Source: Escherichia phage vB_Eco_OMNI12. Taken from it: a stretch of DNA of 64,000 nucleotides. Every line of letters begins with the position of its first letter. Position 1 is the stretch's first letter. This document shows positions 6,229 through 63,999 of the stretch, piece after piece. Location of the stretch: sequence record OL362041.1; one strand, given 5' to 3'. The notes beneath the pieces are model-generated. The model saw nothing but the letters and a program-made list of their open reading frames with translations. It did no database searches and was not told where the DNA came from. Position numbers and translations under genes: made by a program.

Positions 6229-6257
6229 TAGATATATTTATTACATGGTATTTAGAC

Positions 6258-16614: not shown

Positions 16615-16645
16615 TTTGTGTTCCTCATGTTATGTCAGTAAGACT

Positions 16646-16674
16646 ACTATAACACAACACGAGGGACTTGTAAA
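16646..16674 (-). promoter_or_regulatory. Early promoter (TTTACA-N17-TATAGT)
   Basis: Read on the - strand; a near-identical ~55 bp copy lies at 32568-32622. Confidence 0.6.
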
Positions 16675-18732
16675 CTACATCTTGAACTTTTTAGACATTC
16701 CGTTGATGTTAACCAAAGAAGCTAAGATTTGAGAAACTTCGTTTTCCTCTTCTTTTGATTCTTCTACAAGGAATTGATTAAATCCAGCCATTGGACGAAC
16801 TTCACCAGTTTCCATTAGATGGTCGCCATCATATACTGATTCTTCTAATTGTTCAGAAGGAGGAACGATTGTACCTTCGATTAGATACTTGTTATAAGCA
16901 GTTTCTTTCATAAAGTAAGTACTTACTTTATTAATCTTCAGTAAAATTCCACGTGGTAGAATAACTTCAGCTTCTGACGGAAATCCTGATAAATGACCCG
17001 GAACGATAACTTTGATTCGCTCAGCTCCTTTAATTACCATACCCACGCTAGTTTCAGCATCTTCATTAGCATATGTAGAATGACTACCCATATGCATCAA
17101 ATCTTCTGCATCAACGGAACCTTCTCCTTCACCAGAAAATACTGCGCCGGAATCATCTAGAGCCATATAGTTTTTACCATGCTCACCGAAGATATTTGGT
17201 TTAAGCGATGTGGATACGAAGTTCTTGAAATAGAACATTTTATTTTCAATGTTATGACGCAAAGTTTTAAAGGTAACTTCTTGTCCACGGTAAAGTGTAG
17301 TTCCTGGAGGAAGAACTGAACCTTTAGCGAATGCAGAATCAAGCGTCTCAATATGTTTAATAGCTCGTTCCATATATTCTTCACGGGTAGAATCTGGTTT
17401 ACCCAAAAGGAACGAGTTCATTTCAACATATGAATCTGCACAATAATCTTCAATTACATCAGATTCAGCTTGAGTTAATCCTTTTGGAGTTACTTCAGTG
17501 CTTGCGTATTCATATGCCTGAGCAGCAGATTCATTAATCAATTTATAAATGCCATTCATGACAAATTGAATAATAGCTGTCTTTTCATCTGGCGTAGCTT
17601 TAGAACCTTTAACCAAATCATTGATAATTTTCTTAATAACATCAAAGCTATTAGAAATATTAATATCAGCAAGATCGCTTAAAATTTTATCAGTCTTATA
17701 ATCAAAGAATTCTTTATTCTTTAAATATTCTTGAGAACCTTGATATGTTATATCGCTCTGTAACTTGATAGATGGATCACGTAAACGTGCATGGGCTAAT
17801 GCAATATGATTTCGGAAGCTTTCGAGTTCATAATCACTAGATTTAAAACGAGAAGCGCTTCTCATACCGCCTATAGCTCCTTTGCTGAAGTTTGAACCAA
17901 TTTGAATAACGCCAGAGTTCATTGGTCCTTCTGCTTTATACACCGGAACTTTAGATTCAAACTCTTGATATTTCTTAGCAGCGAAGCTATCACCCTGAAG
18001 TGAAGCATCAACAGTAGAATATTGAGCTTGTGCTGCTAATCGACGACTAATTTTAGTTTTCTGAATAACAGCTTGGTCCGTGCGCTTATCATTTTCTAAA
18101 GCAATAGAAGCAGCAACAGCAACAGCTTTAGGAACAGCATTACCTGTTTTAACATCTACATAAACATCACCAACCTTTGATTCAACTTTTGTGAATAACT
18201 CAGTTGAAATAGGAGGTACACCTGGAATGTCTTCTAAATTGGCATTTTTACGATAAACCATAATATATGCGTACTTTTTATCATAATCCCAGATTTCCTT
18301 TAAAAGAACATATCGACCTGCTCCTTTAGTACGTACTAAACGGTCAGCAATAACTTGCATTTGACGAGCAGCGCCATTTGTTTTACTCTTTAGTACGCGG
18401 AATAAGCATGCATCAATTTTATACTGTTTCATTGTTTGAAGAGCAGTATCAAAAACAGCGTTAATGACGCCAATTGGATTTCCACCCAAGTTTCTAAGTT
18501 TAACCAGTGATAATTTCTCGTTGACACCTATCATTACGATATGCATCATTTTATCGCCTGGCTTAACGTTTTTATTCGTATCACCACCAGAGGTGTATGT
18601 ACAAAATCTAAATCCAGGAAGCACGCTTTCTTCGCCGGCTTGAATAGCAAAAATTTGTGGTATTTTATGCTTAGGATTTAAGTTAACAACCGGCGCCGAA
18701 GCGCCGTCAAATAATTCTGTAATAAGTTCCAT
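16675..18732 (-). CDS. Alt-family ADP-ribosyltransferase, second paralog
   Basis: 685 aa; N-terminus MELITELFD like Alt; C-terminal LYRG...FVSTS...EAEVILP (R-S-ExE ART motifs). Confidence 0.8.
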   Translation of the reverse strand: MELITELFDGASAPVVNLNPKHKIPQIFAIQAGEESVLPGFRFCTYTSGGDTNKNVKPGDKMMHIVMIGVNEKLSLVKLRNLGGNPIGVINAVFDTALQTMKQYKIDACLFRVLKSKTNGAARQMQVIADRLVRTKGAGRYVLLKEIWDYDKKYAYIMVYRKNANLEDIPGVPPISTELFTKVESKVGDVYVDVKTGNAVPKAVAVAASIALENDKRTDQAVIQKTKISRRLAAQAQYSTVDASLQGDSFAAKKYQEFESKVPVYKAEGPMNSGVIQIGSNFSKGAIGGMRSASRFKSSDYELESFRNHIALAHARLRDPSIKLQSDITYQGSQEYLKNKEFFDYKTDKILSDLADINISNSFDVIKKIINDLVKGSKATPDEKTAIIQFVMNGIYKLINESAAQAYEYASTEVTPKGLTQAESDVIEDYCADSYVEMNSFLLGKPDSTREEYMERAIKHIETLDSAFAKGSVLPPGTTLYRGQEVTFKTLRHNIENKMFYFKNFVSTSLKPNIFGEHGKNYMALDDSGAVFSGEGEGSVDAEDLMHMGSHSTYANEDAETSVGMVIKGAERIKVIVPGHLSGFPSEAEVILPRGILLKINKVSTYFMKETAYNKYLIEGTIVPPSEQLEESVYDGDHLMETGEVRPMAGFNQFLVEESKEEENEVSQILASLVNINGMSKKFKM

Positions 18733-18735
18733 GAT

Positions 18736-20793
18736 TTATCCTTGAACGAACTTGTAAGGCATGTTTGCAATATCTATACAAGACGCAATAATTCCAAGAG
18801 ATGATTCTACTTTCTGTTTAACATTTGATGAAACAAATGATGCAAAATCAACTCTGTCTTCTATTTCAATATCACCTGTCATTGTAACTACTTCGCCGGT
18901 TTCCATTAGACGGTCACCGTCATAAATTACCGATTCGGTGAGTTCTTCTGTGGTCATAACTTCAGCTTGAATAAGCTTGTTGTTAGTTTTAACTGTTCCA
19001 TCATTGTAAGATGCATCGGTTATTTTATTAACTTTGACCATTAATCCACGTGGCAAAATGACTTCCATTTCATTTGAAGGTGCTAAACTTCCACCTGGTA
19101 AAACAACATTGACTTTATCAGCCCCAGTAATAACCCATCCAATTCCAACTAAATTATCGCTAGAATTTACTAGTCCTTCATCAGTTTTATCAATAGAAAC
19201 ACTTAAACGCTTTTCGTCTGGTAAAACACCCACAGATGAATCAGTCATCCAGGTACCAAAAATATTTGGATATAATGATGTTGACACAAAATTTCTAAAA
19301 TAAAAAACTCGATTTTTTACCAGTGCTTCATATATTGAAGGTAACATTCGTTGTGAACGATACAAAGTAATACCTTTTGGTAATCGTTCACCATTTTTAA
19401 AGGCAGAATCTAAATTATCAATAGCTTTTTCTATATCAGATGCTGTCAAAATACTTGTACGCTCATCTGGATTATATAATCCCAAAAGAGCGTTATTTAT
19501 GTCTACATATCCTGAACTTACGTATTCACGAATTCCGCGTTTTTGTGCCGGTGTGTATTTAGATGAATCTTTATTTTCGACTATAGGATGTAGTGACCAT
19601 CCAGCGGTAAGAGCATATCCACGCAATTCTCTTCGAATAATCTTTGTTTTTATTGCATTCCAAGAATTTTGTACTAACTCATTCGCAGCATCTTGATTTA
19701 AATGCGAATGCTTGTTAATGTTTCTTTCTAACCAAGCACCTTTATATTTTTCTAAAGTATCATCAACTATAGAAGCAATAGTTTCTAAAGTTTTTATTGA
19801 AGTAATAGATTCTTTTCGTAATCTTTCTAAAGCTTTATTTTTTATTTCTGCATTAACATCAGATTCTTTATCTTCAGGAATTATAGAAGCTTCTCTGAAT
19901 GCCATTCCAGCTGTAACACTACTAAGAGCATTCTCTAATGCAAATCCTGAAGTAGAAATAACAGTTAATTCATTAGCGTCAGAAATTAAAGGAGCGTCAG
20001 CAGGTTTATTTAATTCTGCTGCTGAAGCCTCAAATTTTTGAAACATCGGCGTTTCAAATCTAGAAGATTCCAATGATTGACTTTGCGCAATTGCTCTACG
20101 GGAAATTTTAACTTTAACGATTACAGCTTGGTCAGAACGTTTATCATTTTCTTGTGCAATAGATGCTGCAATTGCCTCATTTTTGGTTACTTGAACTCCG
20201 GTATCTTTATTGATATAAACATCACCGACCTTCGATTCAACTTTAGTAAAGAGCTCGGTACTAATTTCCGGAACTCCTGGAATGTCTTCTAGTGATACAT
20301 TTTTGCGATGTATAAGAATATATGCATACTTTTTATCATAATCCCAGAGTTCCTTAAGAAGGACGTATCTGCCACCTGAACGACTACGGATAAGTCTATC
20401 AGCAATAACTTGAATTTGTCGAGCTTGACCAGCGGTTTTAGACTTAAGAATACGAAGCATACAAGCATCAATTTTATACTGACGCATTGTTTGCATTGCA
20501 ACAGTAAAAACTGAATTGATATAATTAATTGGGCTTGGACCAAGACCTTTTAATTTAGCAATTGAACCTTTAGCAGTTAATGTAAAAGGAACAATATGCA
20601 TCATTTTATCGCCCATCTTTAAATCGCGATTAGTATCACCTCCAGATGTATAGGTACATAAACGAAAACCTGGTTGTTCAATTGCATCATCAACATGAAC
20701 TGAAAAAATTTGTGGTATTTTCTTCTTTGGATTTAAGTTTGTAATCGGAAGAGTAGTATCTTCGTCAAATAATTCTGTAATAAGTTCCATCAT
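18736..20793 (-). CDS. alt: Alt ADP-ribosyltransferase (virion-packaged, modifies host RNA polymerase)
   Basis: 685 aa; LYRS...FVSTS...EMEVILP motifs; position next to gene 30. Confidence 0.85.
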   Translation of the reverse strand: MMELITELFDEDTTLPITNLNPKKKIPQIFSVHVDDAIEQPGFRLCTYTSGGDTNRDLKMGDKMMHIVPFTLTAKGSIAKLKGLGPSPINYINSVFTVAMQTMRQYKIDACMLRILKSKTAGQARQIQVIADRLIRSRSGGRYVLLKELWDYDKKYAYILIHRKNVSLEDIPGVPEISTELFTKVESKVGDVYINKDTGVQVTKNEAIAASIAQENDKRSDQAVIVKVKISRRAIAQSQSLESSRFETPMFQKFEASAAELNKPADAPLISDANELTVISTSGFALENALSSVTAGMAFREASIIPEDKESDVNAEIKNKALERLRKESITSIKTLETIASIVDDTLEKYKGAWLERNINKHSHLNQDAANELVQNSWNAIKTKIIRRELRGYALTAGWSLHPIVENKDSSKYTPAQKRGIREYVSSGYVDINNALLGLYNPDERTSILTASDIEKAIDNLDSAFKNGERLPKGITLYRSQRMLPSIYEALVKNRVFYFRNFVSTSLYPNIFGTWMTDSSVGVLPDEKRLSVSIDKTDEGLVNSSDNLVGIGWVITGADKVNVVLPGGSLAPSNEMEVILPRGLMVKVNKITDASYNDGTVKTNNKLIQAEVMTTEELTESVIYDGDRLMETGEVVTMTGDIEIEDRVDFASFVSSNVKQKVESSLGIIASCIDIANMPYKFVQG

Positions 20794-24746: not shown

Positions 24747-24762
24747 AACATTTTCCTCAGTA

Positions 24763-24778
24763 AGGGGCCAAAGCCCCT
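24763..24778 (-). terminator. Hairpin between early genes
   Basis: AGGGGC-TTTG-GCCCCT on the - strand just after the stop at 24787. Confidence 0.45.
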
Positions 24779-24786
24779 CATTTATT

Positions 24787-25164
24787 TTAAATATCAAATT
24801 CGTTAAGAACTACATCAAAGATTGCTTCAAGATGCTCAGGTTTAGCTCTGTTACTCAGAATATGACGAATCCAAGTTTTAACCAAAAGCTTGCGATTAAC
24901 GCCATTCCAGCAAGGATGAGTCCCTAAATCGCGTTCACGGAAATCATCATCCAGAGCGATTTTAAAGTTGGAACCTTCCATCGTGATTGAAACCGTGATA
25001 CCGTTTTCAAATCGCATATAAACGTAATTAGGAGTCATATACTGCTCAATTTCGCATACTGATCCATTTTGATGTTTCCAAAGGCAAATAGTATCAATAG
25101 AACCTGCAATACTATTAGAAACATATTTACGTTCAAAGTTGATGTAGTTCATTTTATTCTCCAA
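24787..25164 (-). CDS. Hypothetical protein
   Basis: 125 aa ORF. Confidence 0.55.
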   Translation of the reverse strand: MENKMNYINFERKYVSNSIAGSIDTICLWKHQNGSVCEIEQYMTPNYVYMRFENGITVSITMEGSNFKIALDDDFRERDLGTHPCWNGVNRKLLVKTWIRHILSNRAKPEHLEAIFDVVLNEFDI

Positions 25165-25219
25165 GATGTTTAATTGCGGTACAGGTATATAATATCATAT
25201 CCTGTACCAAAGTAAACAA

Positions 25220-25552
25220 TTATTTTACTACTTTCCAATGCTGCATGTCAAGTTTACCAACTTTTTTCATCTTCTCAATTAAGCGTTCGGCACGTTGGCG
25301 AGCTGTAACATAATACCATTCACCTAATTCATTTTGTTCAATTTTTCCAACGATTACTGTATTCAATTCATAAATCCAACCAGTAAAGAAATTATGAACT
25401 TGAATTGTAAAGGTGAAATCTGTTCCCATACCTTCTGTTGTTTCTACTTCAATAATATCACCTTCAACTGCCATTAAGAACCACATAGTTTCATCATATT
25501 TACCATTGAAGCATTTAGTTTTAACTGCAGCGTTCAGATTAATCGTTTTCAT
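25220..25552 (-). CDS. Hypothetical protein
   Basis: 110 aa ORF with GGAG upstream. Confidence 0.55.
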   Translation of the reverse strand: MKTINLNAAVKTKCFNGKYDETMWFLMAVEGDIIEVETTEGMGTDFTFTIQVHNFFTGWIYELNTVIVGKIEQNELGEWYYVTARQRAERLIEKMKKVGKLDMQHWKVVK

Positions 25553-25627
25553 TTTATTCTCCTTTGTTTGTGTAAGATAATACTATCACAAAGGAACCAT
25601 ACTGTAAACAACTTTATGCAATCTTTG

Positions 25628-25658
25628 GAAAATAAAAAAGGACTCCCGAAGGAGTCCT
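25628..25658 (-). terminator. Rho-independent terminator
   Basis: AGGACTCC-TTCG-GGAGTCCT on the - strand followed by TTTTTTATTTT. Confidence 0.65.
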
Positions 25659-25662
25659 CAAC

Positions 25663-25839: not shown

Positions 25840-26237
25840 TATAAATTCTCTTTTAAATGAAAATGCAGGACTTATTGGCATTGCCTGCGCAAGCCCTCAA
25901 GGGGAACATAGGTTTTTTGATATTTAACGACCAGGATAACCATAAACCCGTCATCATACCTTATAGCTCTTATCTGTTGCACACCGTTAGCTTAAAGGTT
26001 CCGGGTTCGATTTCTCGAGGATAAGATATATACTGATGGATATATAGGCCTTGAGGCGTACTCCCGATTGGCCATCACCTCGGGGTAGCATGCACTTGCC
26101 GCTATAAGAATAACATTCAAGAGGTACACCGTAAAACTGCCGGGGTCTTAAAACTATAATGATTCGCAAATCATTAATCAGACAGTTCGACGGCTCCTCG
26201 TTTTAACTTCACACTAAGGCAGTGACTCTCCAATAAA

Positions 26238-29241: not shown

Positions 29242-29303
29242 TTCAATTTCCTCATTTGTTTTGGTAGAGCTATAATATCACAACTCTACCGTAAAGTAAA
29301 CTA

Positions 29304-32564: not shown

Positions 32565-32592
32565 AAAGTCCTCATGTTATGTCAGTAAGACT

Positions 32593-32621
32593 ACTGTAAC
32601 ACAACACGAGGGACTTGTAAA
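32593..32621 (-). promoter_or_regulatory. Early promoter (TTTACA-N17-TACAGT)
   Basis: Near-identical ~55 bp copy of the element at 16622-16676. Confidence 0.6.
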
Positions 32622-32625
32622 CAGC

Positions 32626-34240: not shown

Positions 34241-35419
34241 TTAAAAGTATTTTTTAAAACTCATCATAACTTTATCATCAACATCATTATCAATCTGTGC
34301 AACAAGATAAGATGACAGTTCTACTTCTTGTGGCGCTGATTGAACATTATCAGAATTAAGATATTCACGAATCCAAGGATATGGATGTTTAACCGGAGCA
34401 TCGGTAATTGGGCATGGAAGACCACACTGTTTCATACGAGATACAGTTAAGTAATCAATAAAGCTCCACATGCTATTTGTATTTAATCCAGGAACATCGC
34501 CATCTTTAAATAAATGAACTGCCCAATCTTTTTCTTGGCGGTTAACTTCCATGAAAATATCAACTGCTTCTTGCTCGCACTCTTGAGCAATTTTAACCCA
34601 TTCATCGCCATCAGTACCAGATTGAAGTTGACGAATAATATATTGTGTACCTTTAAGATGAAGCTGCTCATCACGTGCAATGAACTTCATAATCTTGGCA
34701 TTACCTTCCATGATTTCCATGTTTTTATGGAAGTTAAAGGTACACGCAAAGGATACATAAAAACGAATAGCTTCTAATGCATTGATTACATGCAAACAGA
34801 GGTAAAGAGATTTCATTAGCTCACGCTTCCAATATGTCTCATGCTCAATAGCATCTTCAATAACGTCTTCGTCTGCATTAATTTCTTTTTGGTATTCGAT
34901 ATCAGCTTTAGCGTTTTCCCAATAACGAGTTTTAATCAGAACATCATCATAATAACGTCCAATGGATTCAGCACGTTTCATAATAGCTTCATCTAATACA
35001 ATCTCATCAAATACCTTTGACGGATCAGTATAAAGATTTCGCATGATATGAGTGTATGAACGACTGTGAATAGTTTCACTAAAAGTCCATGTAGCAACCC
35101 ATGTATCAAGGCTTGGGTCTGAAATTAACGACATAAGTACAGCAGATGGTGCACGACCCTGAATGCTATCCAAAAGTGATTGATACTTCAAGTTGTTAGT
35201 AAAAATATTTTGCTGATACTGAGGAAGCTTATTAAACTGTGCAGCATCCATCATTAAGTTTACTTCTTCCGGGCGCCAGAAAAATGATAAGGACTTTTCT
35301 GTAAGTTCTTCAAATACTCGATGCCGTTGAATATCATAACGCGCAATACCAAGACCTGAACCAAAAAACATAGGTTCTTTTAAAACATCAACTGGATTTG
35401 TATTAAAAACTGTGCTCAT
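34241..35419 (-). CDS. nrdB: Ribonucleotide reductase small subunit, uninterrupted
   Basis: 392 aa continuous ORF with ferritin-like di-iron core. Confidence 0.9.
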   Translation of the reverse strand: MSTVFNTNPVDVLKEPMFFGSGLGIARYDIQRHRVFEELTEKSLSFFWRPEEVNLMMDAAQFNKLPQYQQNIFTNNLKYQSLLDSIQGRAPSAVLMSLISDPSLDTWVATWTFSETIHSRSYTHIMRNLYTDPSKVFDEIVLDEAIMKRAESIGRYYDDVLIKTRYWENAKADIEYQKEINADEDVIEDAIEHETYWKRELMKSLYLCLHVINALEAIRFYVSFACTFNFHKNMEIMEGNAKIMKFIARDEQLHLKGTQYIIRQLQSGTDGDEWVKIAQECEQEAVDIFMEVNRQEKDWAVHLFKDGDVPGLNTNSMWSFIDYLTVSRMKQCGLPCPITDAPVKHPYPWIREYLNSDNVQSAPQEVELSSYLVAQIDNDVDDKVMMSFKKYF

Positions 35420-35470
35420 AAATTTTCCGCTTAGTTAATAGTTGGTGACTCGTCCGTGAGTCAAATTATA

Positions 35471-37735
35471 TCATAATTTACAGGATGAACAATCTTCAGC
35501 TTTTGGAGTTTCTATTTCATAATCATCAGTACCAGAACCATCACGGGTATTATGATAATAGAAATTTTTAATGCCATAATACCATCCGTATAGCATGTCA
35601 TCAATCATTATTGACATTGGAACCTTTCCTTTTGGAAAAATCTGCGGGTCATAGTATGTATTCGCTGAAGCTGATTGACATACCCATTTCAGCATAATAG
35701 CTACCTGCGTAAGATAAGGTTTATTACCTTTCTTAGCTAATTTCCATGTATAATCATAGAGGTCTATGTTATGCTCAATATTGGGCACGACTTGATTAAA
35801 GGAGCCCTCTTTTGATTCTTTAACAGAGACTGGTCCACGTGGAGGCTCGATACCGTTTGTACTGTTAGAAACTTGGGAAGATGACTCACATGGCATAAGT
35901 GCTGATAATGTGCTATTACGGATGCCAAAGAGCTTAAGGTCTTCCCGCAGCGCCGACCAGTCACAAACGTATTTTGGAGCTGCGATTTGGTCAATCTTTT
36001 TATTGTACCAGTCGATAGGTAATTCGCCTCGAGACCAACGAGTGTCTGAATAATATTCGCAAGGTCCTTTTTCTTTGGCGAGCTTAATGGATGCTTTAAT
36101 GAGCCCATACTGTAATCTCTCAAATAGTTCATGTGTTAAATCGTTAGCATCTTCATAAGAAGCAAAGTTACTTGCCAGCCAAGCTGCATAGTTGGTAACA
36201 CCTACACCGAGGTTACGGCGCTTTTTAGCTTTTTCTGCTTCAGGAACTGGATATCCTTGGTAATCCAAAAGATTATCAAGAGCACGAACTTGAACTTCTG
36301 CCAATTCATTAATTTTATCTTGGTCTTGCCAGTCAAAATTATCTAGTACGAATGCAGAGAGAGTACACAATCCAATTTCAGCATCAGGACTATTCACATC
36401 ATTTGTTGGAATAGCAATTTCACAACACAAGTTGCTCTGACGAATAGGTGCCTTTTCACGAATAAACGGAGTATAGTTATTCGTATTATCTATGAACTGT
36501 ACATAAATCCTTGCTGTTCCTGAGCGTTCAGTCATGAGTAATTCAAACAGTTCACGGGCTTTAATACGCTTTTTACGAATATTAGGGTCTTTTTCTGCGG
36601 CTTCGTATAATTCACGGAAACGGTCTTGGTCTTTAAAATAAGAATAATAAAGCTCGCCACCCATTTCATGCGGACTGAACAAAGTAATGTAATCGTTCTT
36701 TCCAAAACGTTCCATCATCAAATCATTCAGCTGAACACCATAATCCATATGACGAATGCGGTTTTCTTCTACGCCTTTGTTATTTTTCAAAACGAGAAGA
36801 TTTTCAACTTCCAAATGCCAAATAGGATAATAAGCAGTAGCAGCGCCGCCACGAATTCCGCCCTGTGAACATGATTTAACAGCAGTCTGAAAATGTTTCC
36901 AAAAAGGAATAACACCAGTATGGCGTACTTCACCCATGCCAATCTTAGAACCTTCAGCACGAATCATACCAACGTTAATACCAATTCCAGCACGTTTGGA
37001 GATATATTCAACAATTGAAGCAGAAGCCTTATTAATAGACTTTAATGAATCACCTGCCTCAATAACAACGCATGAACTAAACTGCCGAGTTGGAGTACGG
37101 CAACCAGCCATAATAGGAGTTGGTAATGAAATCTGTCGAGTAGATACTGCTTCATAAAAACGAATAACATGTTTTAATCTATCAACAGGTTCATCTTGAT
37201 GCAATGCCATTCCAATAGTCATAAATGCAAACTGTGGAGTTTCATAAATTTGACCAGTGGTTTTATCTTTAACTAGATATTTTTCTTTTAATTGCATCGC
37301 CCCGGAATAAGTAAATTCCATATCCCGCTCGTGCTTAATTTTTGATTCTAAAAATGTAATTTCTTCTGCTGAATATTTTGACAATAATTCAGGGTCATAT
37401 TTACCTTCATTTACACAGTAAGAAATATGGTCAATAAATGAACGTGGTTCATACTGCCCATAAACATGCTTACGAAGAGCAAACATTAAACAGCGTGCAG
37501 CTACATATTGATAATCAGGTTCTTCAACCGAAATAGAATTCGCAGCGGCCTTAATGACAATAGTCTGAATATCATCAGTTGTCATTCCATCACGGAGATA
37601 AGATTTAATATTTTCATATAATTCATAAGGATCTACTGATGTTCCCTCAGCTGCCCAAGATAAAACTTTAATAATTTTTTGTGGGTCAAAGCTCTGAGAA
37701 ACACCACTACTTTTGATAACATTAATTAATTGCAT
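35471..37735 (-). CDS. nrdA: Ribonucleotide reductase large subunit
   Basis: 754 aa; ATP-cone N-terminus and active-site NLCCEI region. Confidence 0.95.
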   Translation of the reverse strand: MQLINVIKSSGVSQSFDPQKIIKVLSWAAEGTSVDPYELYENIKSYLRDGMTTDDIQTIVIKAAANSISVEEPDYQYVAARCLMFALRKHVYGQYEPRSFIDHISYCVNEGKYDPELLSKYSAEEITFLESKIKHERDMEFTYSGAMQLKEKYLVKDKTTGQIYETPQFAFMTIGMALHQDEPVDRLKHVIRFYEAVSTRQISLPTPIMAGCRTPTRQFSSCVVIEAGDSLKSINKASASIVEYISKRAGIGINVGMIRAEGSKIGMGEVRHTGVIPFWKHFQTAVKSCSQGGIRGGAATAYYPIWHLEVENLLVLKNNKGVEENRIRHMDYGVQLNDLMMERFGKNDYITLFSPHEMGGELYYSYFKDQDRFRELYEAAEKDPNIRKKRIKARELFELLMTERSGTARIYVQFIDNTNNYTPFIREKAPIRQSNLCCEIAIPTNDVNSPDAEIGLCTLSAFVLDNFDWQDQDKINELAEVQVRALDNLLDYQGYPVPEAEKAKKRRNLGVGVTNYAAWLASNFASYEDANDLTHELFERLQYGLIKASIKLAKEKGPCEYYSDTRWSRGELPIDWYNKKIDQIAAPKYVCDWSALREDLKLFGIRNSTLSALMPCESSSQVSNSTNGIEPPRGPVSVKESKEGSFNQVVPNIEHNIDLYDYTWKLAKKGNKPYLTQVAIMLKWVCQSASANTYYDPQIFPKGKVPMSIMIDDMLYGWYYGIKNFYYHNTRDGSGTDDYEIETPKAEDCSSCKL

Positions 37736-38269: not shown

Positions 38270-39126
38270 ATTGCCATTTTCCCTTTAATTGCTGGATGCG
38301 ATTCATAATTTTCAAGGATAAAATCTTTCGGTTTCATGTATTCAGTTAACCAGTAAAGCTGTGTTTCGGTGTCACAATTTCCAAACTCTATAGGCCAATC
38401 AATTTTAAGTTCACATAGTTCTTTAGGCTCACGACGTAAAATTTCTTTACATTGCTCAGTATGATTCATATAGATGTGAGTATTACCACCAGAAAATATC
38501 AAATCTCCTGGGATAAGATTACACATCTTAGCCACAATATGCGTCAAGGCAGCGTACGAGGCAATGTTGAATGGCAATCCCAAGAAAACATCTACACTTC
38601 TTTGGTACCATTGTAAATCAAGATAACCATTACGCACATTAAACTGATAGAACATATGACAGGGCGGTAATGCCATTTGATTGATTTCAGCTGGATTCCA
38701 TGCTGAAACGATTTGACGTCGATCAGTTGGTAATTTTTTAATACGATCAATAGTTTCAACTAATTGATCCACACCGCCGAAATCACGCCATTGTTTACCG
38801 TATATAGGACCAAGTTCACCACTATGATATCCTAGGTCTTTAGCCTGGTTTTCATAGTTATCGTCCCAAATAGTTTTACCTTGAATAAGACTACCATGTG
38901 TGCGAAGACGTAAATCATTAACATTGGTAGAACCGGAAATAAACCATAGAAGCTCAGCAATGCATGCATTCCATGCAAGCTTCTTAGTTGTTACCGCAGG
39001 AAAACCTTTAGTTAAATCCCAACGTAATTTAGTACCGAACAAAGCAATTGTTCCTGTGCCTGTTCGGTCATCGGTTTCATAGCCATTTTCAAAAATGTCT
39101 TTAATTAAATCTTGGTATTGTTTCAT
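38266..39126 (-). CDS. td: Thymidylate synthase, uninterrupted
   Basis: 286 aa continuous ORF including active-site PPCHMFYQF. Confidence 0.95.
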
Positions 39127-40618: not shown

Positions 40619-40727
40619 TTTATTCTCCTTAGCAAGCTTTAATCAAAAGATATAAACAGACCAACATAACTGCTGCCATAATATAAGGTGCGAACATTTT
40701 CTTTTCTCCATTAGTTTTGATAGGGTA

Positions 40728-40756
40728 ATAGTATCACACTACTACCCTTCTGTAAA
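40728..40756 (-). promoter_or_regulatory. Early promoter (TTTACA-N17-TACTAT)
   Basis: Read on the - strand. Confidence 0.55.
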
Positions 40757-41122
40757 CTACTTTTTGAAAGTTTTTCGCAAAAGTTCAATGATTTCATCTA
40801 CATTGTTTTCGTCAACAATGCAGTGAATTTTTGTTACGCCAGAAACTTTGTCTTTGACTTCATCTTCTTCAGAAGTCGGTTCTTTATACTCACGAAAACA
40901 ATGAAATTCGTCTTCACAAACGTTAAAGTAAAAATGCTTTCCATTTGCGCATTCAATGTGTTTTATTACTCTAAATCCATCAACAAAGAAAGCTTCTTTA
41001 ACTTCAAACCATCCGCCATTTTCTTGAATAATTTTAACTATTGCTGAATTAGAACGTGGGCGATAATTAATAAATGTATCAATAAGTCTTGGAACAAGTT
41101 CATACTTTTTACCGATATACAT
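40757..41122 (-). CDS. Hypothetical protein
   Basis: 121 aa ORF. Confidence 0.5.
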   Translation of the reverse strand: MYIGKKYELVPRLIDTFINYRPRSNSAIVKIIQENGGWFEVKEAFFVDGFRVIKHIECANGKHFYFNVCEDEFHCFREYKEPTSEEDEVKDKVSGVTKIHCIVDENNVDEIIELLRKTFKK

Positions 41123-41166: not shown

Positions 41167-41397
41167 TTATTGTTCAATCAATCCCATGTAAAATTCTGCG
41201 TCTTCAGAATCCATACCATCACAATATTCATTAGCCATAAAGCGGGTGAGGTCTTCAAGAGGACCTTCAATGACAATAGAAAAATTGCAATAATTGGGAT
41301 CATCGTGAATACTTGTGATACTAAGTTCAGGATAACGATTACGAATAATTTCTTCGATATATTCAAAATCAACGATGTCAATATCAACTTTAGCCAT
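41167..41397 (-). CDS. Hypothetical acidic protein (76 aa from internal ATG)
   Basis: AGAGGAAAATAAT-ATG downstream of the early promoter at 41441-41469. Confidence 0.5.
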
Positions 41398-41440
41398 ATT
41401 ATTTTCCTCTTTAATCATCAGCAGTATTGCCGATAGTTGT

Positions 41441-41469
41441 ATAGTACCATGGAAGGACAAGGATGTAAA
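41441..41469 (-). promoter_or_regulatory. Early promoter (TTTACA-N17-TACTAT) with A/T-rich upstream element
   Basis: The ~40 bp upstream segment is identical to that at 58318-58360. Confidence 0.6.
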
Positions 41470-41490
41470 CCGTTTTGTGAAAAAATTTTT

Positions 41491-41520
41491 GAAATAAAAA
41501 AGGGGACCTCTAGGGTCCCC
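41491..41520 (-). terminator. Rho-independent terminator after gene 32
   Basis: GGGGACC-CTAGA-GGTCCCC on the - strand followed by TTTTTTATTTC. Confidence 0.7.
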
Positions 41521-41542: not shown

Positions 41543-42451
41543 TTAAAGGTCATTCAAAAGGTCATCTAGATCCGTGTCATCAGCACTAGATGAACTGCCA
41601 GAGCTTGAGCTCATAAAATCATCTTCAGTTTTTGTTTTGAAGTCATCAACATTGAATGCATCCAAATCATCAGCAACTTTATCAGCTTTCTTAGCGGCAG
41701 TTGCAGCGGCACCACCCATTGCAGCAGTTCCCATAACTTGACTGAACTTAGTGCTCAGTTCTTCAAATGATTTGAATTTATCTTTAGAAGTCATTTCAGA
41801 AAGGTCAACCATTTGTTCGAACAGTTCTTTCTGGAAAGATTCATCGTCAATGTTTGGAATCGCAGATTGATTCAGGAATTTAGATTCGTCGTAGTTACTA
41901 AAACCAGAAACTTGTTTAACTTTCAGTACAAAGTTAGCACCTTCCCACGGACAAGTTACATCAACCGGAGTTTCACCCATTTCAACATCAACCGCAATCA
42001 TTGCATTGATTTTATCCCAGATTTTCTTACCGAAACGATATTTAAATACTTTACCTTCGTTTTCTGGAGCAGCTGGGTCTTTTACAACAAGAATGTTAGC
42101 CCAGTAAGAAGTTTTACGTTTAACAAGACTGTACTCTTTATTGTCAGTGTTGTACAAATCATTTTTACTGATATACTGACATACTGGACAAGAATCGTAA
42201 TCACCGTGGGTAGATGAACATGTTTCAATATACCATTTACCATTTTTCTTGAAACCGTGATTTACAAGAATTGCGAATGGTGCTTGTTCATCATTTTTAG
42301 ACGGAAGAAAACGAATTACTGCTTGACCGTTACCCGCATTATCGAGTTTCAGTTTCCACTCGCCTTTATCTTCAGAAGAAAAACCACCTTTATTTCCAGC
42401 CAGTTTAGCCATTTGTGCAGCGAGTTCAGCAGTAGATTTACGTTTAAACAT
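41543..42451 (-). CDS. gp32: Single-stranded DNA-binding protein gp32
   Basis: 302 aa; zinc-binding H...C...C...C region and acidic Ser/Asp-rich C-terminal tail. Confidence 0.95.
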
Positions 42452-44712: not shown

Positions 44713-44774
44713 ATGAACCTCGTTCAATTAGTGAGATTTCTATTATATACTATCTAAATCTTAAAGTAAACAGG

Positions 44775-55292: not shown

Positions 55293-55453
55293 TAACTATA
55301 CCACTCAATTAGTTGACTTTATTATAATATCATCAGACGCTTGATTTGTAAACTGATCTGTGTTGTTTTCTTCAAAAATTTTTTCTACGAATTCCTTGAA
55401 CGACTCGCGTTCCTGAGCTACATTATGCTCGATTACCTTTTCAAGATTATGAC

Positions 55454-56314: not shown

Positions 56315-56781
56315 TAGTAAAGGTCCTCAGAGTAAAGTTCTTTTTCACTACCACCACGTTCAATACGCACTTGTCCAGCGTAAGTTGCAATAATCATTGC
56401 TTCTTCACGTGTCCAGTAATTGCTATACTGGTCAATAAATCCTTGGTCTTCACCACAAACATGGTCTGATACAAGTTTATCACTTACCTGGTCAAGAACT
56501 TCAGCCATATCTTTAGAATAATGACGAGCACCAGGAATAACCAGAGTCCCACCATCTTTTAACTTAAAGCGGTTGGCTGCACACACAATTCGACGTTGAT
56601 ATTTTTCATTATTGTTCCAATGAGCTACTTGCCAACAGATTTCAGGAACCTCTTCTAAAACATCCTCTTCCGTATATTCGGTGTAGTCGCCATAGGCCTG
56701 TAATTTAGCTGCTAGACTTTCTGGAGTTTCACGTAATAAAGCCAGGTCTAATAATTCAAGACGCTCTTTGAAGGTTTTCAT
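56314..56781 (-). CDS. Hypothetical protein
   Basis: 155 aa ORF. Confidence 0.55.
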
Positions 56782-56929
56782 TTGGTTTCCTCAACACTTT
56801 TAATTTTTATAGCTTGTTTAGAACTTTCAAAGCATTGACAATATACTCTTACCGCATCAAACTGGTTGGCCGCTTTAAGATGGACTACACCTTCGTCGTT
56901 ATAAAATTCTACGACAATTTTAAATGTTT

Positions 56930-57259
56930 TCATTTAAACCATCCTTTAATACGTTGCCATAAAGTTTTCTGTTGAGCTTTGTTAACACCAATTGAACGAA
57001 TAACTGGTTGAGATTCCTGAAATTCTTTATAATCAGCAAGGTAAATTTCGTAAGCTGCATCCGTAAATGAACTTATCGCTGCCATAAAATTATTGCGAAT
57101 ACCTACTGGAGCATCTTTACTTTCACGAATAATCATGTATTTACCAGTCTTAATTTTTACAATAGTTCCAAGATAAGCTCCGTGGTACCAAATATCCCAA
57201 CCCTCTTGAGTAGGTTCTGCACAACGACGAAGTTCATTAACAATTTCTAACTTGTTCAT
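56930..57259 (-). CDS. Hypothetical protein
   Basis: 109 aa ORF. Confidence 0.5.
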   Translation of the reverse strand: MNKLEIVNELRRCAEPTQEGWDIWYHGAYLGTIVKIKTGKYMIIRESKDAPVGIRNNFMAAISSFTDAAYEIYLADYKEFQESQPVIRSIGVNKAQQKTLWQRIKGWFK

Positions 57260-57269
57260 TATTTATTCC

Positions 57270-57905
57270 TCACAGTTCAGATGCTACAGTGATTACAGCT
57301 TCAATGTTTTCTGCCGAGCGTTTAATGTCAAGATACACATTACCGTTTTTAGCGATTTTACATGACATTCCGATGTCAGTAAATTTCTGAATATGATGTT
57401 CCATCATTTTGTATCCAAAAATTCGCATATTTCCATTGTTGTTAATTTCAAAATTACGAATTCCGTGAGTGCGTTTTTCTAAAATAGCGAGATAGTTACT
57501 GCGGTAAGTTTCAACCTTTTTAAGAACAAATCCATTTTCATCTAAAAGTTTTAACATGAAGTCTTTATCTTCTTCCATATCAGAAGTAATTTCGCGAGCT
57601 TTACGAGTTGCTCGTTTTTTCAGTAGTTCCGGAGCGTTTTCCTGTGCGTATAAAGTTGCTGCATTTGAAATAATATCCTGAGCTTCACCAGTAATGATTA
57701 ATCCATCACCAGATTTCTCCACCAGGCCTTTTTTAATCAATACCCCAATATTACTATTAACTACTGCATTACCTAAATCTGGATGCACCTCACGAACTTC
57801 TGCGGCTGTAATGAAATCTTTCTTAGCAATGGTAATTAAAATCGCAGCAGTTTTTTCATTCAGAACATCGTTAGAAGCTTTGATGATGTAAGTTACTTTA
57901 GACAT
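57270..57905 (-). CDS. motA: MotA middle-transcription activator
   Basis: 211 aa, position next to gene 52. Confidence 0.85.
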   Translation of the reverse strand: MSKVTYIIKASNDVLNEKTAAILITIAKKDFITAAEVREVHPDLGNAVVNSNIGVLIKKGLVEKSGDGLIITGEAQDIISNAATLYAQENAPELLKKRATRKAREITSDMEEDKDFMLKLLDENGFVLKKVETYRSNYLAILEKRTHGIRNFEINNNGNMRIFGYKMMEHHIQKFTDIGMSCKIAKNGNVYLDIKRSAENIEAVITVASEL

Positions 57906-57942
57906 TTTAATCTCCGTTTCAGTTCATTTATTTGATAGGTCT

Positions 57943-57971
57943 ATAGTATCATGTTTAAAGCAGAAGTAAAC
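57943..57971 (-). promoter_or_regulatory. Early promoter upstream of motA
   Basis: GTTTAC ... TACTAT on the - strand, then a leader shared with the 58262-58300 element. Confidence 0.5.
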
Positions 57972-58010: not shown

Positions 58011-58238
58011 TTACTTAATGTTCAGATTACGAACTTCGATTTCGTCTTCATGGGCAAAATCAAACTGTTTGAATTCTGTGTCACCTTTAAATTTAAAAAT
58101 CATTGTGAAGAAAGTCAGAACACCAGGTTTTTCTTCACGAACTCCACAGATATCATATTCAATACCATCTACAACCAGTTTGTTAGCAGTCAGAGCATTT
58201 TTAGCTTTAACGATTTCGTTTTCGATTTTAAATTTCAT
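58011..58238 (-). CDS. Hypothetical protein
   Basis: 75 aa ORF. Confidence 0.5.
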   Translation of the reverse strand: MKFKIENEIVKAKNALTANKLVVDGIEYDICGVREEKPGVLTFFTMIFKFKGDTEFKQFDFAHEDEIEVRNLNIK

Positions 58239-58287
58239 TTTTTGTATCTCCGGGTTGTTTGTTTCAGTTCATTTATTTGATAGTTGT

Positions 58288-58316
58288 ATAGTACCACAGT
58301 ATGCTTTGGTTGTAAA
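58288..58316 (-). promoter_or_regulatory. Early promoter (TTTACA-N17-TACTAT)
   Basis: Read on the - strand; upstream A/T element identical to 41468-41510. Confidence 0.6.
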
Positions 58317-58340
58317 CCGTTTTGTGAAAAAATTTTTGAA

Positions 58341-58368
58341 ATAAAAAAGGGAGAGCCGAGGCTCTCCC
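58341..58368 (-). terminator. Rho-independent terminator
   Basis: GGGAGAGC-CTCG-GCTCTCCC on the - strand followed by TTTTTTATTTC. Confidence 0.65.
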
Positions 58369-58373
58369 TAAAA

Positions 58374-58523
58374 TTACTGCATGACTGTGATAACTGTCAT
58401 GATAACACGTTGAATTCCGAACGCAAGAAGACCTCCTGCTACGGCAGGAACAACACCTAAACCCGCCAGTAAAATGCCACCAGATACTAATGCAGCGCTT
58501 GTGATACCAATGAATGGACTCAT
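58374..58523 (-). CDS. Small hydrophobic membrane peptide (49 aa), below ORF-track threshold
   Basis: ATG overlaps the gene 52 stop (ATGA); GAGG upstream; translation MSPFIGITSAALVSGGILLAGLGVVPAVAGG... Confidence 0.4.
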   Translation of the reverse strand: MSPFIGITSAALVSGGILLAGLGVVPAVAGGLLAFGIQRVIMTVITVMQ

Positions 58524-61400: not shown

Positions 61401-61428
61401 TTTCTGTTCCTCCGTAGTTGATAGGGTA

Positions 61429-61457
61429 ATAGTACCACGGAAGAACAGTCTTGTAAA
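61429..61457 (-). promoter_or_regulatory. Early promoter (TTTACA-N17-TACTAT)
   Basis: Read on the - strand. Confidence 0.6.
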
Positions 61458-61643
61458 CAACTTTTTTAAAAATATTCGTAATAAATGTGAATACCAATCA
61501 CTACTGCCGAAACTTGTGCAACCCACCACGCACAAGCAATAAGCACAGAATTCAAAATTTTCATAATAACCTCATCACAAAAGTAAATGTTAAACAAATT
61601 AATGGAATACTAATTAACCAAACGAAACACCAACATAATGAAC

Positions 61644-61907
61644 TCATAGTTCAATCTCAACGATTTCCAAGTGTTTTTGTTTTATTGCCTTTTTAACACA
61701 ATCATGGACTAAATATGACCATGAATCATTATATTCTCCATTAACTAATCGTTGGAGATCTTCACGTGATGATAAGTAAGGTTGATCTGATTCCCATTTT
61801 GATAAAAATACTGCAGTAAAAATATCTCCTTCATCTGTAGTTGAAGTCGTAAATGCAATAAATTCACCGGTAATTTTATGTTTAGCGTAATAAAATTTAA
61901 ATTTCAT
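61644..61907 (-). CDS. Hypothetical protein (87 aa from internal ATG)
   Basis: GGAGGAGTAAAA-ATG after the early promoter at 61935-61963. Confidence 0.5.
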   Translation of the reverse strand: MKFKFYYAKHKITGEFIAFTTSTTDEGDIFTAVFLSKWESDQPYLSSREDLQRLVNGEYNDSWSYLVHDCVKKAIKQKHLEIVEIEL

Positions 61908-61934
61908 TTTTACTCCTCCGTAGCTGATAGTTGT

Positions 61935-61963
61935 ATAGTACCACGGTCCTTGTGGTATGTAAA
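61935..61963 (-). promoter_or_regulatory. Early promoter (TTTACA-N17-TACTAT)
   Basis: Read on the - strand, lies inside the 3' end of the denB ORF. Confidence 0.55.
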
Positions 61964-62818: not shown

Positions 62819-62834
62819 AAGGGCCGAAGCCCTT
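62819..62834 (-). repeat. GGGC-TTCG-GCCC hairpin, copy 1
   Basis: The ~20 bp AAGGGCCGAAGCCCTTATTT is repeated at 63047. Confidence 0.4.
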
Positions 62835-62837
62835 ATT

Positions 62838-63032
62838 TTATTTGAATTGTGCAATTCTTTTCTCTAGACATTCAGCATAAGATTTCATTGAGATAAACTG
62901 CGAAAGTAACAGTTCTTGCTCAACTGCATTAACTGTTAGAAACTTTGCGCTTTCTAAAAATTTACTCAGTGCATTAATTTTGAGCATTAATTGATCGTAT
63001 TCTTCTTTTACTCGTGCTTGATAACCTAACAT
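62838..63032 (-). CDS. Hypothetical protein (64 aa)
   Basis: ORF flanked on both sides by the same hairpin. Confidence 0.5.
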   Translation of the reverse strand: MLGYQARVKEEYDQLMLKINALSKFLESAKFLTVNAVEQELLLSQFISMKSYAECLEKRIAQFK

Positions 63033-63046
63033 AATTTTCCTCAGTT

Positions 63047-63062
63047 AAGGGCCGAAGCCCTT
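63047..63062 (-). repeat. GGGC-TTCG-GCCC hairpin, copy 2
   Basis: Immediately downstream of the rIIB stop. Confidence 0.4.
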
Positions 63063-63999
63063 ATTTAAATTGTTCAGTAACGTCTTCAACTACTTCGTAT
63101 TGGCAGGTACGCATTTTAGCATCGTTGTAATCAATCGGAATTGATACTACATCACGCGGATGTACTTTAACTTTTACAACTCGGCTAGTTGAACTGCCAA
63201 AGTGACGAATATAAGATTTAGAACACACATGCAGACCGCGAGAACAAGTTTGTGTATCATCGTCATTCACACGAGTACGTGGCATTTTAACTACTTTACC
63301 AGGGCTGTTATCAAAAGTATTTGAATGACAGTCAAAGTAATTACTGCGAACTACTTTCCAAGCATAGAAGTAACCGTCTTCTGTAATTTCAATATCGTTT
63401 GCTACCAAGAAATCAAAGAGTCGAGATACCGCTTTTTGGCTTGGGTTTTCCAACAGATTTTCCAAGAACGGAAAATAGAATTCAAAGTTTTCGCCTTTTT
63501 CCATCGAGTCAAGAATACGATCAACCAAACCAGATCGCAATTCAATATTTTGATAGAACAAGCTTCCACCTTCAATTCGAACATCGCCGGAAATATATTT
63601 TTCAACAGCGCGACGAACATTAATTTTTTGTGCCGCTTCTTCCAACTTATCCGCTACAAGCAGATTAAGAATTTCCTGGAAGTTTGAATGAGTATTAGGA
63701 GTTGCGTTATAAGTTACACCGTCAACAGTAATTGAAATGAATTTTTTAGATGCATTCCAAATAATGTCAGATTTAGCAACTGGAGCAATAACTGCATCGC
63801 TATTAACTTTAACTGTAATATCACCACTAATAGTAACTTTAGGGCGTTTAGCTTCTTCAGCATTTTTCAAAACACGACGGATTGTGTCAACCGATACACC
63901 TTGCCAATCAGCCAATTCCTGCTGGGTGTAATTACCACTTGAATACAGTTTAACAATTTCAGCTTGTTCGTTTTTGGTCAGGCATTTAATATTGTACAT
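63061..63999 (-). CDS. rIIB: rIIB protein
   Basis: 312 aa; MYNIKCLTKNEQAEIVKLYSSGNYTQQELADWQG... recognised as rIIB. Confidence 0.85.
   Translation of the reverse strand: MYNIKCLTKNEQAEIVKLYSSGNYTQQELADWQGVSVDTIRRVLKNAEEAKRPKVTISGDITVKVNSDAVIAPVAKSDIIWNASKKFISITVDGVTYNATPNTHSNFQEILNLLVADKLEEAAQKINVRRAVEKYISGDVRIEGGSLFYQNIELRSGLVDRILDSMEKGENFEFYFPFLENLLENPSQKAVSRLFDFLVANDIEITEDGYFYAWKVVRSNYFDCHSNTFDNSPGKVVKMPRTRVNDDDTQTCSRGLHVCSKSYIRHFGSSTSRVVKVKVHPRDVVSIPIDYNDAKMRTCQYEVVEDVTEQFK

Follow-up and report, generated by a model that had tools for sequence, protein, structure and literature searches.

Twin terminator and early-promoter cassettes in a T4-like phage genome, and probable exchange of sequence among dispersed early-promoter units

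The two flagged sites in the 64,000-nt stretch of DNA analysed here (the window) are very probably cassettes that join an insulating terminator to an early promoter, and whose copies recombine and occasionally provide the end-points of indels. One of them (cassette A) lies at gene 32 and the other (cassette B) at motA.1, and both belong to a wider set of early-promoter units (Table 1). The strongest new evidence presented here, taken directly from the sequences, concerns exchange between distant promoter copies.

The window comes from a Tequatrovirus (T4-like) genome, of which it forms the final 64 kb. It aligns collinearly, at about 95% identity, with the T4 record from 105.7 kb up to its last position (168.9 kb). 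Compared with T4, it is without homing-endonuclease genes and introns, has a different tail-fibre tip and shows about 12 small indels. The T4 orthologues of cassettes A and B are at 146837-146909 and 163635-163707, respectively. When 2-kb probes around both flagged sites (n = 2) were used as queries, several hundred Tequatrovirus genomes matched at 95-99.8% identity. Gene content was compared with about 50 kb each of SA21RB, RB51, CM8, phiD1, fFiEco06 and pSe_SNUABM_01 (pSe01) and with 64.9 kb of T4, and indels and replacements were located by chained BLAST alignments covering these seven relatives and a few IMG/VR loci. A scan of IMG/VR with MotA yielded 13 loci, too few for population statistics, and INPHARED records were used instead.

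The original prediction described, at each of the two sites, a hairpin followed by an identical A/T-rich tract of about 40 bp and a TTTACA-N17-TACTAT promoter, and all of this was borne out. The terminator scan detected both hairpins, and the in-register identity of the two cassettes extends over 41 nt (CCCTTTTTTATTTCAAAAATTTTTTCACAAAACGGTTTACA). Within it, the 31-mer TTTCAAAAATTTTTTCACAAAACGGTTTACA has exactly two copies in the window, one at 41464-41494 and the other at 58311-58341, each of them on the minus strand. The 41-nt block is followed by a locus-specific 17-nt spacer, which in cassette A is allele S1, TCCTTGTCCTTCCATGG, and then by 18 identical nucleotides (TGGTACTATACAACTATC; also given as TGGTACTAT ACAACTATC). 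The promoter is on the minus strand at both sites, with TGG just upstream of the -10, and GTTTACA is found at 41464-41470 and 58311-58317. The identical A/T tract thus consists of the U-tract of the terminator (about -67 to -62, counted from the -35), a UP-element-like tract and GTTTACA, and the second identical block consists of the TGn, the -10 TACTAT and the start region. The UP-like tract, scored with a UP consensus that is reportedly that of Estrem et al. 1998, matches 12 of the 17 specified positions (-59 to -38), which places it in the top 0.13% of window positions. Folding of the core promoters of the two flagged units gave no significant structure (z -0.9 and -0.6), and the only stem-loop in these units is the upstream terminator.

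It is next to impossible that the resemblance arose by chance in A/T-rich DNA or is an assembly artefact, for which the A/T richness of the tract speaks and nothing else. None of 100 shuffles contained a match to the 31-mer, and about 500 genomes, sequenced independently of one another, carry the pair at both loci; we therefore rejected this explanation. A search with the motA.1 cassette of fFiEco06 matched 970 places in 500 records, which makes the long A-type repeat a family of two copies across the genus.

Table 1. Coordinates of the cassettes, early-promoter units and neighbouring genes in the window.
Feature	Position	Strand	Remarks
Cassette A, whole	41432-41520	-	between gene 32 and frd.3
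Gene 32, ssDNA-binding protein	41543-42451	-	302-aa ORF; transcription unit upstream of cassette A
Cassette A, terminator hairpin	41502-41520	-	GGGGACC-CTAGA-GGTCCCC; terminator scan, 7 pairs (6 GC)
Cassette A, T-run after hairpin	41495-41501	-	
Cassette A, shared block 1	41464-41504	-	41 nt, equal to 58311-58351; U-tract, UP-like A/T tract, -35 (G)TTTACA
Cassette A, core promoter	41441-41469	-	-35 TTTACA 41464-41469; -10 TACTAT 41441-41446, preceded by TGG
Cassette A, shared block 2	41432-41449	-	TGGTACTATACAACTATC, equal to 58279-58296; extended -10, -10, start region
frd.3	41167-41397	-	first gene downstream of cassette A; conserved
Cassette B, whole	58279-58369	-	just downstream of motA.1
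motA.1	58374-58523	-	49-aa ORF, aligns to T4 motA.1; small gene with transcript predicted to be ended by cassette B
Cassette B, terminator hairpin	58348-58369	-	AGGGAGAGCC-TCGG-GGCTCTCCCT, then T-run; terminator scan, 9 pairs
Cassette B, shared block 1	58311-58351	-	identical to 41464-41504
Cassette B, core promoter	58288-58316	-	-35 TTTACA, spacer allele S3 ACCAAAGCATACTGTGG, -10 TACTAT
Cassette B, shared block 2	58279-58296	-	identical to 41432-41449
orf75	58011-58238	-	variable 75-aa ORF between two promoter units (cassette B and 57943)
Direct repeat flanking orf75, upstream copy	58261-58296	-	36 nt, 92% identity; -10 + leader CTATCAAATAAATGAACTGAAAC
Direct repeat flanking orf75, downstream copy	57916-57951	-	36 nt
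Early promoter of motA	57943-57970	-	TTTACT, 16-nt spacer, TACTAT
motA	57270-57905		T4 orthology
Early promoter of orf87	61935-61963	-	A/B subfamily (AAAAATTTTCACAAAACAGTTTACA...GTGGTACTATACAACTATC); gene-content breakpoints 61917/61922
Early promoter of ndd.4	61429-61457	-	B-type start region TACCCTATCAA
Early promoter after frd.2	40728-40756	-	B-type start region; predicted to drive 22-aa mini-ORF + frd.1
Early promoter between cd.3 and orf175	29272-29300	-	T4 orthologue named Pe133295 in T4 record
Third terminator + promoter cassette	25580-25659	-	30.9 hairpin 25638-25659 + T-run; early promoter of 30.8 25580-25608
Early promoter of 30.7	25189-25216	-	8-bp inverted repeat brackets -10, z -5.6
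Early promoter upstream of asiA	55324-55352	-	phiD1 replaced segment starts 55292
Early promoter of rnh	44742-44770	-	annotated in SA21RB
Early promoter + leader of alt.-3	16622-16675	-	second near-identical pair; T4/pSe01 deletion edge 16694
Early promoter + leader of alc	32569-32622	-	second near-identical pair; 53/54 nt identical to alt.-3 copy

The gene 32 ORF aligns to T4 gene 32 at 146948-147853, and all relatives annotate it as single-strand DNA binding protein. The hairpin of cassette A (-14.3 kcal/mol, z -2.1) starts 23 nt past its stop codon, and that of cassette B (-20.6 kcal/mol, z -5.8) starts 5 nt past the stop codon of motA.1. A terminator downstream of gene 32 is conserved among T4-like genomes (PMC1524935); the intrinsic terminator of T4 gene 32 lies directly past the stop codon, as it does in cassette A, and we saw no difference between them. 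The cassette A hairpin is identical in T4 and the six other relatives except for CM8, in which the 3' end of the stem has one C fewer. In the cassette B hairpin of the relatives, the stem is kept and the loop varies (TC, GA or TT). The annotation of SA21RB has a rho-independent terminator at the orthologue of the cassette A hairpin, and the label 'similar to phage T4 early promoter' at the orthologue of its promoter.

We infer the promoter and terminator activity of the cassettes from the consensus and from T4 orthology, and insulation is their most likely function. The intrinsic terminator would close the transcription unit that lies upstream, be it gene 32 or gene 52-motA.1, and stop read-through. 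Within about 25 nt, a putative, very strong immediate-early promoter of the T4 type, read by the host sigma70 polymerase, would restart transcription, which would then enter frd.3-frd.2 or orf75-motA. This promoter would combine a UP element, the -35 GTTTACA, a 17-nt spacer, a TGn and the -10 TACTAT. Such an architecture is known from T4, whose early promoters have been called 'uber' UP/-35/TGn/-10 promoters; they possess further conserved regions, and the arrangement gives the phage an immediate hold on the RNA polymerase of the host (Hinton 2010, PMC2988021). The early promoters of T4-like phages have GTTTAC at -36 to -31 and are A-rich from -40 to -44 (Nolan et al. 2006, PMC1524935). Like the T4 early promoters, the units in the window have GTTTAC, an A-rich UP region, the TGn and -10, and additional conserved positions, and they precede early genes, among them motA, cd.2, alc and rnh. 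They differ in that their -10 is mostly TACTAT or TATTAT instead of TATAAT.

The early-gene parts of the window contain at least 13 early-promoter units, all of them on the minus strand and all with GTTTAC. They sit 25-60 nt upstream of a Shine-Dalgarno sequence (SD) and ATG, and the genes downstream are orthologous to T4 early genes. With 0.07 matches expected, the pattern GTTTAC-N15-19-TGNTANNAT was matched 8 times in the window, always on the minus strand. A pattern with TAnnAT as the -10 misses the pair at 16622 and 32569 (-10 TATAGT and TACAGT), which the repeat finder recovers. The four related units of the original prediction (40728, 57943, 61429 and 61935) are real and, when aligned, share GTTTAC...TG.TACTAT...CTATCAA; its list was nevertheless incomplete, as it missed those at 25189, 25580, 29272, 44742 and 55324 and the pair 16622-16675/32569-32622. 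SA21RB carries annotations at orthologous sites, namely terminators and 'T4 early promoter GTTTAC(N14)gtggTAttaT'. The T4 records AF158101 and NC_000866 contain no promoter features except for one note, Pe133295. A canonical GC hairpin with a U-run is present upstream of only three units (41432-41520, 58279-58369 and 25580-25659), the third of these having a hairpin of -16.4 kcal/mol (z -4.1) that is annotated in SA21RB. In several of the other units, inverted repeats lie on either side of the -10, or a stem-loop is lacking.

Composite elements of this kind have been named PeSLs (promoter-early stem-loops). Arbiol et al. 2010 (PMC2839356) defined them in RB49/phi1 as an early promoter plus a stem-loop, concentrated in hyperplastic regions, and proposed, together with evidence for mini-circles, that ORFs are shuffled by recombination between them. 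Comeau, Arbiol and Krisch 2014 (PMC4122927) give the T4/PST form as TTTACW-N17-TAYWAT, with a stem-loop just upstream, an AT-rich region and an SD and ATG downstream, and illustrate an exchange in the ndd region (ndd.4/.5). Of the window units, both flagged units and most of the others fit this consensus; the exceptions are 57943 and 25189, which have N16, and 16622 and 32569 with their -10 sequences TATAGT and TACAGT. The cassettes in the window likewise have a stem-loop and early promoter, an AT-rich region upstream and an SD and ATG downstream. The window units are intergenic, on the early-gene strand and often beside indels, and the ndd/denB region illustrated by those authors contains window units 61429 and 61935. 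Nothing essential differs in the units of the window, and the identification of the cassettes as PeSLs in the original prediction was right. Since the units match the published consensus and are routinely annotated in relatives, the finding as such is already known. Earlier publications cover the T4 early promoters, the terminator of gene 32 and PeSLs as a concept, the T4/PST form among them, and no new kind of element is indicated.

Some differences from the PeSL description were found. The canonical upstream hairpin is confined to the three units just named, the enrichment at breakpoints measured in the window is weaker than the qualitative description in the papers, the variable ORFs of the window look syntenic and not mobile, and the window shows exchange of sub-blocks (spacer and leader alleles) between distant copies, which is not described in the sections of PMC2839356 and PMC4122927 covered here.

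Evidence for such exchange came from an alignment of both flagged cassettes from eight genomes. The spacer allele AGCATAAAGCTTTATGG is found at the gene 32 locus in T4 and SA21RB and at the motA.1 locus in fFiEco06, whose gene 32 locus has a different spacer. The motA.1 cassette sequence of fFiEco06 is not confined to that genome, as nine further records match it at 98.5% or more, including a48, OE5505, GADU22, KK4 and L14; most of the 500 records found in the same search match at 90-95%, and pSe01, with the usual spacer, matches at 94.2%. T4 carries a C-to-T variant (ATTTTAAAAA) in both cassette copies. A similar picture is seen in the alt.-3/alc pair (54 nt, one mismatch): RB51 has the same G-to-A change in both copies, and SA21RB and pSe01 carry another G-to-A change in both. 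Mosaic leaders were also found. The T4 motA promoter is composed of the core of the window promoter at 58288, a segment of the T4 ndd.6 promoter leader and the motA SD, and the start region of the other subfamily is present in the denB-proximal unit of pSe01 and in one ndd.4 unit from IMG/VR.

Alleles shared across loci, derived bases shared by the two copies and mosaic leaders have the appearance of signatures of ectopic gene conversion among the units. Ectopic exchange between copies could be expected because the units share near-identical patches of 20-55 nt and because T4 recombination is very active. We are evenly divided on whether the early-promoter units constitute a dispersed repeat family undergoing ongoing ectopic gene conversion, in which sub-blocks, namely the UP tract, the 17-nt spacer, the start region and the leader, have been copied across 16-17 kb. 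The strongest form of this reading would be that a dedicated, cassette-recognising factor targets the exchange, as opposed to exchange being a by-product of general T4 recombination.

A possible, though clearly less probable, alternative is that the units are purely regulatory and owe their likeness to common descent and to strong selection for the tightest possible binding of RNA polymerase. Such selection does not account for the identity of the U-tract and the whole UP region at only 2 of the 13 units. The regulatory explanation also leaves unaccounted for the 17-nt spacer allele at another locus, the derived substitutions that single genomes carry alike in both members of a pair, and the mosaic leaders.

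A further observation of this type was made at the orf75 locus, where 36-nt direct repeats flank the variable ORF and the breakpoint relative to T4-type genomes (57951/58274) falls inside them; direct repeats exactly at a breakpoint are likewise unexplained by a purely regulatory role. orf75 occurs in about a quarter of relatives; CM8 and fFiEco06 have it, whereas T4, SA21RB, RB51, phiD1 and pSe01 lack it. When a 901-nt query bearing orf75 was searched, 127 of 713 matching phage records covered at least 80% of it; among the matches listed, most Tequatrovirus records cover 63-64% of the query in two pieces, as T4 does. The distant relative L012, whose MotA is 68% identical, has an orf75 homologue at the same position with 64% amino acid identity. 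Because of this syntenic homologue in a distant relative, orf75 is probably old and the T4 state probably a loss. A simple deletion between the flanking repeats was considered for the T4 arrangement and rejected, as the T4 leader differs over 16 nt; this 16-nt segment is common to the T4 motA leader and the leader of the T4 ndd.6 promoter.

Breakpoints that adjoin a unit fall in a narrow zone 11-48 nt downstream of the -10, at 25532, 29239, 40717, 55292, 58274 and 61917. The breakpoint at 29239 is 33 nt downstream of the -10 of unit 29272, those of unit 40728 fall at 40629-40764 in RB51, CM8, phiD1 and pSe01, and in fFiEco06 gene 30.8 is replaced between 25234 and 25532. Deletions or replacements of neighbouring small ORFs may thus have ended at the units now and then, and we infer that the indels arose by recombination at the units themselves and not just in their vicinity. 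The gene 32 cassette itself (41441-41520) has no indel or gene-content boundary in any of the seven genome comparisons.

Enrichment of the elements at boundaries of variable gene content had been set as a test in the original prediction. Across all 77 early-region junctions, including those of the pair 16622/32569, 9 of 13 with a promoter unit are variable, against 21 of 64 without one (one-sided Fisher p=0.017). This enrichment did not hold against promoter-free gaps of at least 40 nt, of which 5 of 12 are variable (p=0.16, not significant); when the two homing-endonuclease junctions among the same gaps are counted as not variable, the comparison becomes 9/13 versus 3/12 (p=0.034). That the genes following the units are the least conserved in the window was borne out only in part. 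orf75, orf175, orf22 and orf87 are among the ten least conserved genes, but frd.3 has on average 95% identical positions over 7 relatives, and motA, rnh, ndd.4, alc and 30.7 are well conserved too; orf51 and the tail-fibre genes 37/38, which have no such unit, are also among the most variable stretches. Taken together, first downstream genes showed no significantly lower conservation than the remaining early genes (Mann-Whitney p=0.21).

These results are points in favour of the regulatory explanation. According to it, the variable ORFs near the units would be a by-product, with new or dispensable genes surviving only in roomy gaps and best of all just downstream of a promoter, and recombination at the units would have no special role; we hold this extension to be just as tentative as the explanation itself. 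Both the non-significant comparison with matched gaps and the similar conservation of downstream genes fit this explanation, as does the existence of several variable junctions without any promoter unit (orf51, orf106, orf115 and orf109). It is also favoured by the observation that orf75, orf87 and orf109 are syntenic and ancient, their homologues being syntenic even in relatives at 35-65% protein identity; therefore, most differences look like losses. The link between the units and variable gene content in the window is modest, and this, together with the gene 32 cassette lying at no gene-content boundary, tempers the original prediction. Given the exchange between copies and the placement of the breakpoints, a role of the units in gene shuffling is plausible, while it is not statistically robust in this sample.

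In the strong form of the PeSL model, the units would be vehicles of horizontal transfer: a mini-circle carrying a promoter and an ORF is excised between two units and re-integrates at any unit of the same or another phage. We consider this unlikely for the window. The geometry that it requires does exist, as orf75 is enclosed by two tandem units whose 36-nt repeats lie 345 nt apart, and mini-circles have been demonstrated experimentally in RB49/phi1 (PMC2839356). Moreover, orf87 and 30.8 show allelic replacement between conserved promoter-bearing flanks, the two alleles of orf87, with about 56% amino acid identity, occupying one locus. Against this, ten ORFs (nine variable ones and frd.3) were searched by tblastn on all fetched loci, and homologues were found at the syntenic position only, with 0 of 10 at a second location in any fetched locus; in addition, across the 970 places in 500 records the long A-type repeat, a two-copy family, stays fixed at its two loci. 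For orf109, a 26-aa remnant is kept in T4-type genomes. Transposition of promoter-flanked ORFs was therefore rejected within the data in hand, where all homologues are syntenic. The syntenic homologues argue against hopping between promoter-bearing junctions and for variable ORFs that would represent presence/absence and allelic replacement at fixed loci instead of hopping cassettes. The proposed role in shuffling early genes consequently survives in part: sub-blocks have clearly moved between loci, but the variable ORFs are syntenic and show no sign of transposition.

Botstein linkers and lambdoid morons resemble the arrangement in the window: small ORFs come with a promoter and terminator of their own, and conserved sequences mark the boundaries of modules. 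Morons, which are promoter-ORF-terminator units, are thought to arrive by illegitimate recombination and differ in composition. In the window, unlike in morons, the boundary sequences themselves form a repeat family of a single genome, and the ORFs keep their syntenic positions in relatives.

Insulating terminators joined to early promoters, with copies that exchange sequence and at times mark the ends of indels, are thus our preferred explanation for the two flagged sites. Of the premises of the PeSL model, exchange between copies is the only one for which already sequenced genomes allow a test at scale. If the gene-conversion reading is true, the PeSL recombination hypothesis would become testable by population genomics, using the approximately 500 Tequatrovirus genomes that are available.

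The T4-type early promoter units of the window lie on the minus strand, and two of them, P alt.-3 and P alc, form a second near-identical pair, alike over 54 nt from GTTTAC to the Shine-Dalgarno (SD) sequence, with a single mismatch and with TATAGT/TACAGT as the -10 box. RB51, SA21RB and pSe01 each have a derived base that is shared by their two copies, a sign of gene conversion although the loci lie 16 kb from each other. Stem-loop modules without a promoter, in which a T-rich stretch and an SD are fused to a hairpin resembling AAGGGCCGAAGCCCTT, are present at the 30.7/30.6, orf109/denB.1 and denB.1/rIIB junctions (Table).

Features of the analyzed region
Feature	Coordinates	Strand	Remarks
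Tandem 288-nt units (3)	4373-5248		inside hoc; repeat family D1
P alt.-3 and leader	16622-16675	minus	repeat finder
alt paralogues	16681-20793	minus	two full-length, tandem
Hairpin copies, AAGGGCCGAAGCCCTT-like (3)	24750-24787, 62819-62844, 63034-63071		repeat families D10, D14
Inverted repeats bracketing -10	25165-25220, 40704-40760, 61405-61461	minus	DNA folding z -5.6, -3.2, -2.6
Variable stretch	25957-26236		apparently non-coding; between 30.9 and rIII
P alc and leader	32569-32622	minus	repeat finder
Mini-ORF, 22 aa, hydrophobic	40629-40697	minus	MFAPYIMAAVMLVCLYLLIKAC; between promoter 40728 and frd.1
orf51	56778-56933	minus	least conserved ORF of early regions
Leaders	57906-57942, 61401-61428, 61908-61934		
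orf87	61644-61907	minus	
Sites lacking T4 insertions	836-897, 6244-6264, 34743/34744, 35419-35475, 38574-38579, 42514-42550		

Gene content was compared with that of seven fetched genomes (T4, SA21RB, RB51, CM8, phiD1, fFiEco06 and pSe01). orf51, which has no promoter unit nearby, was found in none of the seven, its only match being in one IMG/VR locus. In close relatives a single locus holds either of two orf87 alleles, which share about 56% amino acid identity, and the gene was lost in T4; a homologue with 40-46% identity is kept at the equivalent position in more distant relatives. From the variable stretch, 155 nt are missing in T4, RB51, phiD1 and fFiEco06, and 277 nt in CM8 and pSe01. 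Alignment to T4 revealed that segD, segE, segG, mobE/nrdB.1 and the nrdB and td introns are absent from our phage, and all these absences are clean, at the T4 insertion point. T4 and pSe01 have a single full-length alt gene plus alt.-1/alt.-2 remnants, and four relatives carry a divergent sequence in place of a segment of about 410 nt internal to alt (19563-19976). The repeat units of hoc are 78% identical according to the repeat finder, and the BLAST pattern suggests that this gene has one more unit than T4 hoc.

The mini-ORF downstream of promoter 40728 is preceded by an SD of its own. Its sequence occurs in T4, where it is unannotated, SA21RB and fFiEco06, whereas RB51, CM8, phiD1 and pSe01 lack it.

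Several leaders contain a GGAG-type SD, such as ACGGAGATTAAAATG (motA) and CGGAGGAACAGAAAATG (ndd.4), and judged by sequence these SDs resemble GGAGRAYARAA, the target of the RegB endoribonuclease in T4 early mRNAs (PMC3014915). In three promoter units the -10 box is bracketed by inverted repeats. DNA folding of the unit at 61429, the ndd.4 promoter, pairs the left arm with the ndd.4 SD GGAGGAACA. Since this arm is located upstream of the start site, only read-through RNA could mask the SD; the ndd.4 ribosome site could thus be masked in read-through transcripts and free in those initiated at the promoter.
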